NCBI GenBank assembly: GCA_951406725.2
Contig: OX597839.1
Coordinates: 17,794,001 to 17,858,000, forward strand
Source of the DNA: Octopus vulgaris
Lineage: Eukaryota
DNA length: 64,000 nt
Direction of reading: 5' to 3'
Shown: positions 22,305-64,000 of the stretch, piece after piece
Layout of the letters: each line of letters starts with the position of its first letter
Position numbering within the stretch: the first letter of the stretch is position 1
Notes under the pieces: generated by a model
What the model saw: the letters and a program-made list of their open reading frames with translations, nothing else
What the model was told of the DNA's origin: nothing
Database searches by the model: none
Program-made: the position numbers and the translations under genes

Positions 22305-23390
22305 TAATAATAATAATAATAATTTCATTTATTGGCCACCAGAGCCAACATATAGGGGACAGTACAGTAAACGTGGACAGTGGGGTTTTATACAAAACAG
22401 CAAGTACACAATTAAAACAATAACATTCGCACCAAAAGCAAATCATCTGGTGCGTGAAATATGCTCAATTTGAAAATCACTTTCAAATTCAATGTTTTGT
22501 GTTACAAGGGCCATCAGTTTCTCGTCCCTTCTTATTTGAGTATGAAGTTGAGTTTTTTGTGTCAGTATTGTTTTATTTGTTTGCTTGACTGTAGTGGTGA
22601 TGGTCTTGTTGTTTTGTATCTGTGTTTGCTGTGAGTGTGATATCTGCAGTTTTAGATGTTTGTGTGAGTGTCTGTTCTTGTGTCTGTTTAGGTTGTTTGT
22701 GTTTGGGGGATTCTAGTGATTTGATGGTGTTGGTTGTGTTGGTTTTATTGGGGAGATGTTTGCATGGGTGGTGTCTGTATTTCTTATTGTGGGTGTTGTT
22801 ATTCTTTATAGAGTTTTTTTTTGTGTGCTTTCTTTTATATTTTTTGGGCCTTTTATGTTTTCTATCATTTTCACTACTGGAAGATGAGGGATCTGTGGCT
22901 GTAAGTGTGTCTGTCTGTGTCAATGTTTATATTCTTATTTATGTGGGAGAGCTTTCCTCATTTCCCCCAGGGTGGGTGGTGTTTCGTTTGTTGTTGCTGG
23001 TGTTGGTTGTGATCCTTGCCCTGGCATAGGCAGCAGTGGATCCCTTGTACTTTTTATCAATGCAGCCATTTGCCCTCAGTCATTATGTGCAATACTGTCC
23101 CGTTTTGGAGACAGATGTGGTCCAGGATTCTTTCAAAGTTTTCAGGCTTGATCTGGAGAAGTTCTCCAGATCCAACCTGGTAGTCCTCCCTGGCAGTCTT
23201 TGTCACCTCCATTGGGATGGTATCTGACCCTTGCTTGTTTATGCATCCCAGAAGCCACCGCATGTCAAGTCCTGGTGGAATCCTGGGAATGCAGACATAT
23301 ACTATTCTTTTTCCCATATGGGATGGGTACATAAATGATCCTGCTGGTTTGGTAGGGGTCATTGAATGCTGAACCCAAAACAACACTGTT
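22305..23390 (-). mobile_element. Decayed Tx1/L1-like non-LTR derivative: ORF1-like region + 3' UTR, no RT seen
   Basis: Broken minus-strand frames (YMGKRIVYV-like start, ..GTVLHIMTEGK, eroded Cys/His knuckle-like stretch, K/T/S-rich tail), then 3' UTR ending GGCCAATAAATGAAAT(TTA)n. Clade call is from recalled resemblance, not an alignment. Confidence 0.55.
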
Positions 23391-23607: not shown

Positions 23608-23991
23608 TCCTCTATATATATAAACGGCAAAACGTCTGTGTGTGTGTGTGTGTGTGTGCGCGTGTCCTTTATATAAATCCACAATTTTTCAGTTAGAGGG
23701 CTCGCACTTTCTATGGTCATTCAAAACCATCCAAGGGTGGTCATGCACATCTTTACATTTCCCCAGTCACCCTGCAAAACCATTAAAAAAATCAATAGAA
23801 GTTACTTTTTTGTGAAGTTTCTATCCAAAACCCAATCAAAATGCCCAAAACTTGATAAGCCAATTGAATGCCAGCTAGCTGTATGTGATTGGTTGGAGAT
23901 TTGGACAGTACTCGCATGTATGTGCGCATGCACGCAGCTGTATATGCATGCACTAGCACTATGACCCAGCGTTGCCGGGTCATAGTGCTAG
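23608..23991 (+). mobile_element. Non-autonomous Helitron, family B copy 1 (palindromic 3' end, loop GTT)
   Basis: A|TCCTCTATATATATAAACGGCAAAA ... ACTAGCACTATGACCCAGCGTTGCCGGGTCATAGTGCTAG|T; homologous to 54736-55070. Confidence 0.85.
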
Positions 23992-24332
23992 TCCCATACT
24001 AAAATGCAGTCATGGTTAAAGTAGCCAGGCTAGCTATTCTACAAGATGCCATTACAATAAGATGGATGAAGATGCTTAGGGCATGTGCTACATATGCCCA
24101 TGAGAGTCTTTCTCCAGTTGGAGCATGAGACCTGGCTGTTGCCTGATGGATAAGGGCCTGGTCTAGCCTAAGAGCAACCCTTCTGAGAAAAAATCACTCG
24201 TTACTTAATTCTCCAAGGGGAGTGGAAGATAACTAAAACTATTAACTAATGGTTGGCAGATTTTATCTCTAAACAAGAAACCAATATTTTGATTTCTTGT
24301 GTTAGAAGTCAATACTATGACACTGTCAGCAG

Positions 24333-46365: not shown

Positions 46366-46559
46366 CTTTATAGTCCCATATGCTACTGAAGCTTGAATCA
46401 CTAGCATTTGGGACGATATTTTATATAAAAACTTTTTATTATTTAGTTGGTATTTGGAATATAAACTGTACCTAAAACTCAAAACAACTTTTTCTGGAAT
46501 ATGATTTTATACCAAACAAGGCTTGAGACAACTATAGCATAAAGGATTACACAGAAAGG

Positions 46560-53858: not shown

Positions 53859-54735
53859 AGGTACTTGACCATGGTGCTATGCACTGGGTTTGAACCTGAA
53901 ACCATGTGGAACCAAACTTCTTAACTGCATTAGGCATGGCTGTATCATATACTGTATTTTTTTGGTCAACTATTGTGGTCAATTAAGACCAACCTAGCAC
54001 TTTGTTCATTTGTCTATCCTCATGTAGGATCTGAAGTCAAATGCCCAATGGTGGCCACATACTGGAAACACGATGAAATGCCCTGCTGTGTTAGTTGTAG
54101 CCTTCATTGGCACACACTTCCATTTGGCTGAATTGTCTTACATTTTCCTAGGCATACAGATGGATGAGTAGATAGAAATATAAGCATTTTACAAATGAAA
54201 GAAAAGAGCACTCAGCACATTGTGGCAGTTAAATATTTGTATTAACAGTTCCACTGTAATCTTCATTATTAAAAGTTTCACAGATGCAAATGAAACAAGG
54301 CTGGTTGTTTTGATGTTTAAAACAAGCAAAGGAGGCAACTCCTATGGTTATCAGCTAATCTAAATTGAAGAGGAATAAAGACAATGTAATGAGGACCAGG
54401 TCTTGTCTTTAAAGACAATGCACGAAAGCAACAGACATGTTTCAGTTTTGTTTAGTCTCATCAATGGGACCAAATCTTGATATTATTGAAGTTGTTTGTT
54501 GTTGTTTTTTACATTTTAAGCCTTTGACATTCAAACCAGCAATATCCAGCTTAAGTATCCTACTTATTTTATGTCCAAACTATCCAGATCTGACCTTTCA
54601 TACCTACTCAACAATTTCGTTCCAAAAATAAACCATAACATGATCGAAATCTTGAAGGTATGAAATAATACATGATCAATAGAAAACAATGTGAATAAAT
54701 AAGCATTACATTTGACAGTAACCTAAATTCTAAAA

Positions 54736-55070
54736 TCTCTCTATATACAAACGGCAAAATGTCAGTGTGTGTGTCCTTTATACAAATCCGCAATTTTTCA
54801 GTTAGAGGGCTCACACTTTCTATGGTCATTCAAAACCGTCCAAGGGTGGTCGTGCACATCTTTACATTCCCCATTGAAAAATCAATAGAAGTGAATTTTC
54901 TATCCAAAACCCAATCAAAATGCCCGAAACTTGATACGCCAATTGAATGCCAGCTAGCTGTATGTGATTGGTCAGAAATTTGGACAGTACTCGCGTGTAT
55001 GTGTGCATGCACGCAGCTGTATATGCATGCACTAGCACTATGACCTGGCAACGCCGGGTCATGGTGCTAG
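54736..55070 (+). mobile_element. Non-autonomous Helitron, family B copy 2 (palindromic 3' end, loop AAC)
   Basis: A|TCTCTCTATATACAAACGGCAAAA ... ACTAGCACTATGACCTGGCAACGCCGGGTCATGGTGCTAG|T. Confidence 0.85.
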
Positions 55071-55946
55071 TGAATAATATTCTACTTGTTATATGTTCAA
55101 ACACATCAGACACCTACCCTACAATGTCATTCTAAAAACAAATTATTATATCATTGAAATCTCAAAGCTACAAAATAATGTATGATTAATTAAAAACAAT
55201 GTGAATAAATAAGTATTGCATTTGACAGAGTAATCTATGAATGCTTTAGGGGTAAACACCCATTACTTTTTGTGTATTTAGTATGCCAATACATCTCGGG
55301 GGTATTTTCCTCTCAGCCTTGTTGCTTATCTTCATAATCCACATTCAAGTCTTTCCCATCTATTTCCTTTTACATTAATTAATCACTTTTCCATGTTGTC
55401 AAACTGATGAGATCCAACAAGTTTGAAACACAGATGTTGTTTTCACCAGTTCAGTTTTTAAGAGCAAGATTCATAACTGGTTGTAATATCTTTATTTTCT
55501 CAAAAAGCATGTGGAATAGTAATATTATCAGAGTAAGGTGGCAAGCTAGTGGAATTGTTAGTATGCCATTCCAAGTATTTACATCCAAGTTCAAATTCCA
55601 CTGAATTCAACTTTGCATTTCATCCTTTGGGGGTTGATTTAATCAACTTAACCTCTCTCCCGAAATAGCTGGCCTTGTGCCAGAATTTGAAACCAGTATT
55701 ATCAGAGTGATCTCGATTTTTTAAAATTTTCTTTAAATTTTAAACGAGTCTAGAGAGAGTATTTATCTTCTAATTGCAATCATAATCTCAACTGGTCAAA
55801 TTTTAAAACTCACCCTATTACAGATGTGAGAACCTTACATACATGTATTTAGCATGCAGAACTCTCCTATAGCCTTTTTCTCTCATACTTTACCTCTCTC
55901 TACTCCTAATTCTCCTAACATGAAGTTGCTATACACGTGCACACGC

Positions 55947-63267: not shown

Positions 63268-64000
63268 CCCTGTGACTTGGCAGTTCAGCAAAATAGACTG
63301 ATTGAGTTAGTACTAGGTTTCAAAAACAAATATTTAGTACTGGGGGTGATTTGTTTGAATAAGTTCTTCAAACAAATTATTATCATTATTATTAACAATT
63401 ATTAATTCTTCAAAAAAAATCGTTATCATTATTATTGACTAGCAGCATAGCCCGGCGTTGCCCGGGTATGTAAGAGCCCCTAGTAGGCAACGACTAATCC
63501 CAATCTAGTTCTTTCCCTCTAGGGAACGAAGGCGCATGTGTAGGTTGCAATGTCTTCTCTTTACTTGAATACTTCTATGTATACGATGTTCCTAGCTGTC
63601 TCCCGACAGAAAATGTGTTGCATATAAAAAGCTTAGATTCTTGACCCCATGTCGAATTTATCAATTTTTTTCAGAACTGGGGGAACTTTTCAAAATTTTT
63701 GCTGCGTTAGTTTTGAATTATGACATTGGGCTATGTGTGTGTCAAGTTTCATCAGAATCGGTTGAAAGCCGTGGTCAGGGTGAGGGTACAACCTGACAGA
63801 CACACAGACAGACAAACTGCCATTTATATATATAGAGATAACAGCCATTAGCAGAATTGGTGGAGTCAGTAGTATTTACTTACTACCATTCGTGCTTCTT
63901 GGTTCAAATCTTGCAAGAATTTACTTTTCTTTTGATCCTTCTTGAGCTCAATAAACTAAGTACAAATCAAGGATAGGGTTTGAGTTACTCTTCCCCTTCT
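63268..64000 (-). repeat. Right arm of inverted duplication, interrupted by a Helitron; runs off the window
   Basis: Reverse complement of 60821-61101. Confidence 0.95.
63439..63838 (-). mobile_element. Non-autonomous Helitron, family C
   Basis: Minus strand A|TCTCTATATATATAAATGGCAG ... CCCGGGCAACGCCGGGCTATGCTGCTAG|T; empty A^T site at 60982/60983 in the paralogous arm. Confidence 0.93.

Follow-up and report, generated by a model that had tools for sequence, protein, structure and literature searches.

The Helitron family described here ends in a 41-nt near-perfect palindrome whose three central bases occur in either orientation, GTT or AAC, and this flipped palindromic end is a variant of the canonical Helitron end that is found family-wide and in two species. 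The family (family B) has two copies in the window, which is the whole 64-kb stretch of Octopus vulgaris DNA that was analysed; these copies, the parts of their ends, and the other Helitrons nearby are listed in Table 1.

Table 1. Helitron features of the window and the parts of the family B terminus
Feature	Positions	Strand	Remarks
Family A (two copies) and family C	199-592, 1814-2450; 63439-63838	+, +; -	Ordinary short hairpins, loop AAC
Family B copy 1, non-autonomous Helitron	23608-23991	+	384 nt, 5' TC to 3' CTAG, host A and T on either side
(GT)n microsatellite near 5' end of copy 1	23638-23665	+	Longer in copy 1 than in copy 2
Left arm of copy 1 palindrome	23952-23970	+	Inner CTAG at 23953-23956; reverse complement of right arm except A23968
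Copy 1 loop, GTT orientation	23971-23973	+	Backed by a species A contig with unique flank
Copy 1 right arm	23974-23992	+	Homologous to ordinary family A/C ends; terminal CTAG 23988-23991, host T 23992
Family B copy 2	54736-55070	+	335 nt, junctions A/TC and CTAG/T; shorter microsatellite and internal deletions relative to copy 1
Copy 2 terminal palindrome	55031-55071	+	Loop AAC at 55050-55052; two mismatches (55046, 55063)

The two family B copies lie in the same orientation and differ in 27 of 333 aligned columns, 3 of which are the loop; the non-loop divergence is 7.3% by pairwise alignment. Both begin with TC (at 23608 and 54736) and end with CTAG, with a GC-rich inner stem that ends 12 nt upstream, and both have a host A before and a host T after the insertion, which fits the HLE1 target, between A and T with no duplication of the target, as judged from occupied sites. 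In a source that defines HLE1 and HLE2 (PMC11417382), the HLE2 class (Helentron/HINE/DINE-1) is characterized by T/T insertion and short terminal inverted repeats, whereas the family B junctions are A/TC and CTAG/T (the slash marks the junction between host and element). A search for other inverted self-matches inside copy 1, at a word size of 11, returned none besides the end palindrome. The ends and the target match HLE1 and not HLE2, and the first-pass annotation, which had recognized a Helitron, is supported; family B is a canonical Helitron (HLE1, or Helitron1) that is non-autonomous and non-coding. The longest stop-to-stop frame in the window is 230 aa, and the DNA is AT-rich and rich in microsatellites. 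Copy 2 is flanked on both sides by units of another dispersed repeat (54556-54718 and 55078-55228), which are 74% identical to each other, and the 5' end of family C is 83% like that of family B over 42 nt.

The terminal palindromes lie where they had been reported, but "fully palindromic" proves too strong a description: 18 of 19 mirror pairs are complementary in copy 1, in which A23968 faces C23976, and 17 of 19 in copy 2, which has a G-C pair at the position of the copy 1 mismatch. The palindrome does include the terminal CTAG, yet its last base is the T that follows. Alignment confirmed that the bodies are co-oriented and the loops reverse-complementary; GTT in copy 1 and AAC in copy 2 are exact reverse complements, with the length kept and both stem halves retained. 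At 7.3% divergence, the probability of three given point substitutions producing this difference is about 1.4e-5. The three family A and C ends, which were correctly described as ordinary short hairpins, all have the loop AAC and match at 5, 5, and 9 of the 19 mirror pairs. The copy 1 right arm aligns with these ordinary ends and the left arm does not, which argues that the left arm is the derived part. When the palindromes were folded in 101-nt contexts, four folds gave z-scores between -3.75 and -6.52, and in none of them did any of the 200 shuffles reach the same stability. On the plus strand, the inner boundary of the palindrome reads A/CTAG, which is not a described Helitron junction. (A single Rfam match, to SCARNA7, fell below threshold at 20.4 bits against a cut-off of 65 and was treated as chance.) The window contains two other imperfect palindromes, at 23143-23179 (37 nt) and at 46373-46414 (42 nt, containing CTAG).

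Four of 24 listed sequence sets were aligned to positions 23800-24099 at 80% likeness, and the evidence for the family as a whole comes from the contigs of two species among them (4717 contigs from species A, set X2; 3382 from species B, set X4). One species A contig covers 23964-24099, that is, the copy 1 loop together with its unique flank, with 0 other letters, and the loop of copy 1 is therefore not an assembly error. In species B, a contig over this stretch has 4 other letters, and 2 of them are listed in the flank; because a full AAC loop needs 3 other letters, the orthologous copy in species B very likely has GTT as well, although a loop-only inversion with later decay would also fit. 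In 207 contigs of species A and 233 of species B, the alignment stops just behind the T at 23992 and gives way to a long unrelated flank, which marks the 3' boundary of the element. Another 70 in each species are placed in reverse and leave the alignment before 23952; these are ends with the loop AAC relative to the flank, the body not being visible in them. Family B is thus a dispersed multi-copy family, with at least 277 (species A) and at least 303 (species B) contigs that have long unrelated flanks at the exact end, and the reverse-placed share at exact ends is 0.25 in species A and 0.23 in species B. Further forward contigs leave the alignment at 23989 (14), 23990 (10), and 23993 (43) in species A and at 23993 (43) in species B; all of these loose-end counts refer to the rows listed, with 164 further rows outside them. 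The first-pass annotation had allowed that the GTT loop might be confined to copy 1 or be an assembly error. Both are ruled out, the first by the two orientations being common in the contigs of two species and the second by the species A contig.

Several measures at the level of single letters bear on how the ends are oriented. In forward-aligned contigs, T to A at 23972 is seen in 68 contigs (7.5% of depth) in species A and 79 (4.4%) in species B, and T to C at 23973 in 48 (4.5%) and 61 (3.6%); G at 23968 accounts for under 2% of depth, which is below the listing threshold, in both sets. Orientation was not judged from depth-weighted letter shares, a measure rejected because contigs that contain the palindrome only align whichever way fits. 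Summed contig depth was likewise not accepted as a copy number; a crude copy-number bound of about 700 and about 1,500 rests on assumed single-copy depths. In the stretch of aligned body that was checked (about 150 nt), any variant above about 6% of depth is at a CpG site or is a substitution of copy 1 itself; this stretch therefore shows no subfamily marker. In the loop itself, A replaces G at 23971 in 21.6% and 9.0% of depth, and the corresponding change from C to T at 23970, the CpG partner in the stem, stays below 2%; this excess may represent an ATT-loop subfamily, stem repair, or alignment bias. (The raw WGS sets X14 and X15, labelled as the same species, are no test: neither gave a matched read on this high-copy repeat, although each holds 1,934 million letters, and a label or a filter is suspect.)

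It is barely credible that the two orientations are a sequencing or assembly artefact, or that the reverse-placed contigs come from other Helitron families. Family A ends do match the palindrome in reverse (about 83% over 24-35 nt), and the AAC count could be raised by an unlisted sister family that shares the right arm. However, in control alignments family A ends score just 12-17 and family C gives no match, whereas the end of copy 2 scores 28 backwards against 18 forwards on the copy 1 palindrome. Moreover, an independent contig set reproduces the copy 1 loop and flank exactly, a second species has the same insertion, and copy 2 is itself an AAC loop on a family B body.

To calibrate the ratio of the two loops, families of 800-1000 copies (12 and 29 families) were simulated, compacted to 31-mer unitigs, and aligned with blastn at several thresholds; the simulation assumes a star phylogeny, and unitigs with blastn differ from the contig aligner's own method. 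With 90-98% GTT, the simulated reverse-placed share does not exceed 0.07. With 2% GTT, it is at least 0.36 when AAC is the exact mirror form, and the letter shares of the other forms are far above those observed. These extremes were rejected, and so was a matched-stem or loop-only AAC as the main AAC form, which at a ratio of 0.20-0.30 predicts at least 9% G at 23968 where less than 2% is seen. The closest setting has an exact mirror-image AAC and 50-65% GTT (one example gave a reverse share of 0.27, G at 23968 in 1.8%, and A at 23972 in 3.1%); none of the settings agreed with all of the observed values, in particular 7.5% at 23972 together with less than 2% at 23968. In this modelled reading, which is not a measurement, both loop forms would be common, at about 1:1 to 2:1 GTT:AAC, and the AAC form would be mostly an exact mirror image; here too a sister family with the same right arm could raise the apparent AAC count. 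A ratio near 50:50 had been proposed as the mark of repeated independent switching. The modelled range includes that ratio, and we infer the recurrence of loop flipping.

A second feature of the contigs concerns the tip of the hairpin. Among the 15 skips listed (25 in all), 12 have their right breakpoint at 23966-23973, so that the left arm is removed while the right arm and the end are kept; the joints listed are those with the best support, and a joint whose right side is short escapes detection, which may sharpen the cluster. The binomial probability of such clustering among the listed skips is 3e-6 to 4e-12, depending on the window assumed. Five of the 12 tip joints are present in both species. 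Given this pile-up of breakpoints, switching or breakage has occurred at the tip repeatedly; two go-back joints, which lead from 23967 to 23937 and 23938, break there too. Some tip-broken variants exceed single-copy depth, and hairpin-less family B variants may have been copied further. The part available of a review on palindromes (PMC7999016) held nothing usable on tip-centred deletions.

Long palindromic ends are not confined to family B. A metagenome scan for hairpins flanked by CTAG, using a pattern that cannot match the mismatched stem of copy 1, returned two loci, L001 (554-594) and L002 (15-55). In each, the 41-nt end is nearly palindromic (17 of 19 mirror pairs), with the loop AAC and two arm mismatches that are common to both loci, and the resemblance to family B is confined to this end. 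Long palindromic ends therefore occur in at least one further, unrelated Helitron-like family, with no flip in its two copies. In L001, a second Helitron-like element (594-990) begins with TC directly after the CTAG of the palindromic end, in a head-to-tail arrangement, and ends in an ordinary short hairpin with the loop AGC. Pattern scans for such ends in viral contigs and prokaryote genome contigs found nothing.

The explanation that we tentatively place first, a little short of even confidence, is that a short terminator hairpin became the 41-nt palindrome and that its loop was then inverted repeatedly by polymerase template switching from arm to arm, likely during amplification. In the first step, fold-back copying would turn the stretch upstream of the former hairpin into a mirror image of the terminal 19 bases, the T behind CTAG among them. 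Subsequently, a new strand that has copied the left arm would switch to the mirror arm, either on the other strand or on the displaced one, copy back across the loop, and then return; the centre would be turned round while the body and the CTAG end stay unmoved, and a stem mismatch would mostly be carried along. Both templates would become exposed, as in the circovirus 'melting-pot', when a donor or a circle intermediate is copied by strand displacement. Finally, the 16-bp outer stem would let either loop act as a terminator, and both forms could spread. Short-range template switching can extend stems and invert loops (PMC8794818; PMC5453318 is listed on the same subject), and template switching at a Rep-bound palindrome, with both strands proposed as templates, is described for circovirus rolling-circle replication (PMC2690592). 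Two observations count against this explanation. The end shared by L001 and L002 is unflipped in both, so that a long end need not flip, and in Helraiser a loop change cut activity to the level seen with no hairpin, which fits poorly with free exchange of the loop.

Somewhat unlikely, yet a real contender, is the possibility that one or two early inversions produced a GTT master and an AAC master that were amplified side by side, without recurrent flipping. This needs a single kind of mutation only, and one that is already described (PMC8794818); the agreement of the reverse share between the species (0.25, 0.23) follows if the burst predates their split, A23968 is common to nearly all depth, as would be expected of a mutation in the master, and L001 and L002 exhibit the long end unflipped. 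However, copy 2 matches neither the GTT form nor an exact mirror of it. It is a third state, AAC with the pair matched that is mismatched in copy 1, which requires at least two events or a surviving ancestral form. In addition, no body marker outside CpG sites stands at intermediate frequency in about 150 nt; the tip-centred rearrangements recur (12 of the 15 listed), and the near-even ratio would be a coincidence.

Loops might instead flip after insertion through ordinary chromosome replication or repair, independent of any Helitron activity, given that any long-armed hairpin is a substrate for interstrand template switching (PMC8794818) and that tip-centred deletions would also fit breakage of a chromosomal hairpin. 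We consider this unlikely. At one orthologous locus the two species very likely agree in their loop, the arms of copy 2 keep two unmirrored substitutions, and for a third to a half of the copies to be turned while pairwise divergence stays at about 7%, each locus would have to flip far more often than a base is substituted. The period of amplification is favoured because one ortholog is unchanged, five tip joints are common to both species, and the arms of copy 2 have not been homogenised, a thin basis of one orthologous locus, five shared joints, and one pair of mismatches.

The first-pass annotation had drawn a parallel with parvoviruses, and that mechanism found no direct support. In its strict form, a true rolling-hairpin terminus, the 3' CTAG would fold onto the inner CTAG and prime the second strand, and a RepHel nick at the inner boundary would then lead to copying of the palindrome in inverted form. 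We regard this as very improbable, even though the palindrome reaches the terminal CTAG exactly, leaving a free 3' end that would be base-paired and could prime, and even though in the model most AAC ends are exact mirror images and 50:50 lies inside the fitted range. It needs a nick of the parental strand at the inner A/CTAG, unlike the described Helitron junctions (A/TC, CTAG/T); copy 2 is not an exact mirror; and a 41-nt hairpin is short next to the 125 nt palindrome of AAV (PMC11575299). In Helraiser (PMC4778049, PMC5876387), the 3' end is joined to the 5' end in covalently closed circles, only plus-strand junction oligonucleotides are cleaved, and the hairpin is a terminator; most of the element's activity is lost when the loop is changed. 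A broader proposal, that the palindrome is a working flip/flop terminus, with inversion a regular part of transposition (through a self-priming CTAG or strand switching on circles), both orientations mobile, and palindromic ends arising independently in several families, seems to us doubtful.

Our literature search found no description of flipped Helitron end palindromes; most subscription journals lay outside the search, and Repbase or Dfam may hold the family. The words 'hairpin' and 'palindrom' do not appear in the available main text of an octopus repeat annotation (PMC13282606). Helitron termination and second-strand synthesis are still modelled from one reconstructed element, and a family on the order of a thousand copies, with a marker of strand orientation inside its terminator, offers a natural read-out of which strand served as template for the end. 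Should orientation change as the elements transpose, it would be a record of template switching or fold-back priming within the Helitron cycle; should the flips go back to a single source copy or to replication by the host, family B would be a tidy case of a known type of mutation. Were the working flip/flop terminus to be true, it would be a bridge between peel-and-paste transposons and rolling-hairpin replicons. Family B also suggests that a long stem removes the requirement for loop sequence seen in Helraiser.

Among known systems, canonical Helitrons and Helraiser share with family B the 5' TC, the 3' CTAG, A/T insertion, a GC-rich hairpin about 12 nt from the end, and the lack of terminal inverted repeats; family B differs in that its stem runs through the terminal CTAG (19 bp rather than about 6-8), which places a second CTAG on the other strand, and in that its loop is found in both orientations, whereas loop sequence mattered for activity in Helraiser. 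Template-switch mutations have in common with family B the exact inversion of a loop with its length kept, mirror-like arms, and a variant in which the stem mismatch is matched, but as described they are rare and affect single loci, whereas in family B a third to a half of the copies are modelled as flipped, and at a transposon terminator. The circovirus 'melting-pot' (PMC2690592) likewise has a palindrome beside a rolling-circle Rep nick site and both strands as possible templates; its setting, however, is a viral origin whose stem is 10 nt long and whose loop contains the nick, and the available text describes maintenance of the arms rather than inversion of the loop, and does not extend to Helitrons. 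Flip/flop of AAV2 (PMC11575299) resembles family B in having a terminal palindrome with two mirror-image centres, and in family B, too, the 3' end could fold back. In contrast to the 125-nt T-shaped hairpin of AAV2, which belongs to a linear genome with a dedicated resolution site, the family B palindrome is 41 nt long, lies at one end of an integrated element, and has no recognisable inner nick site.
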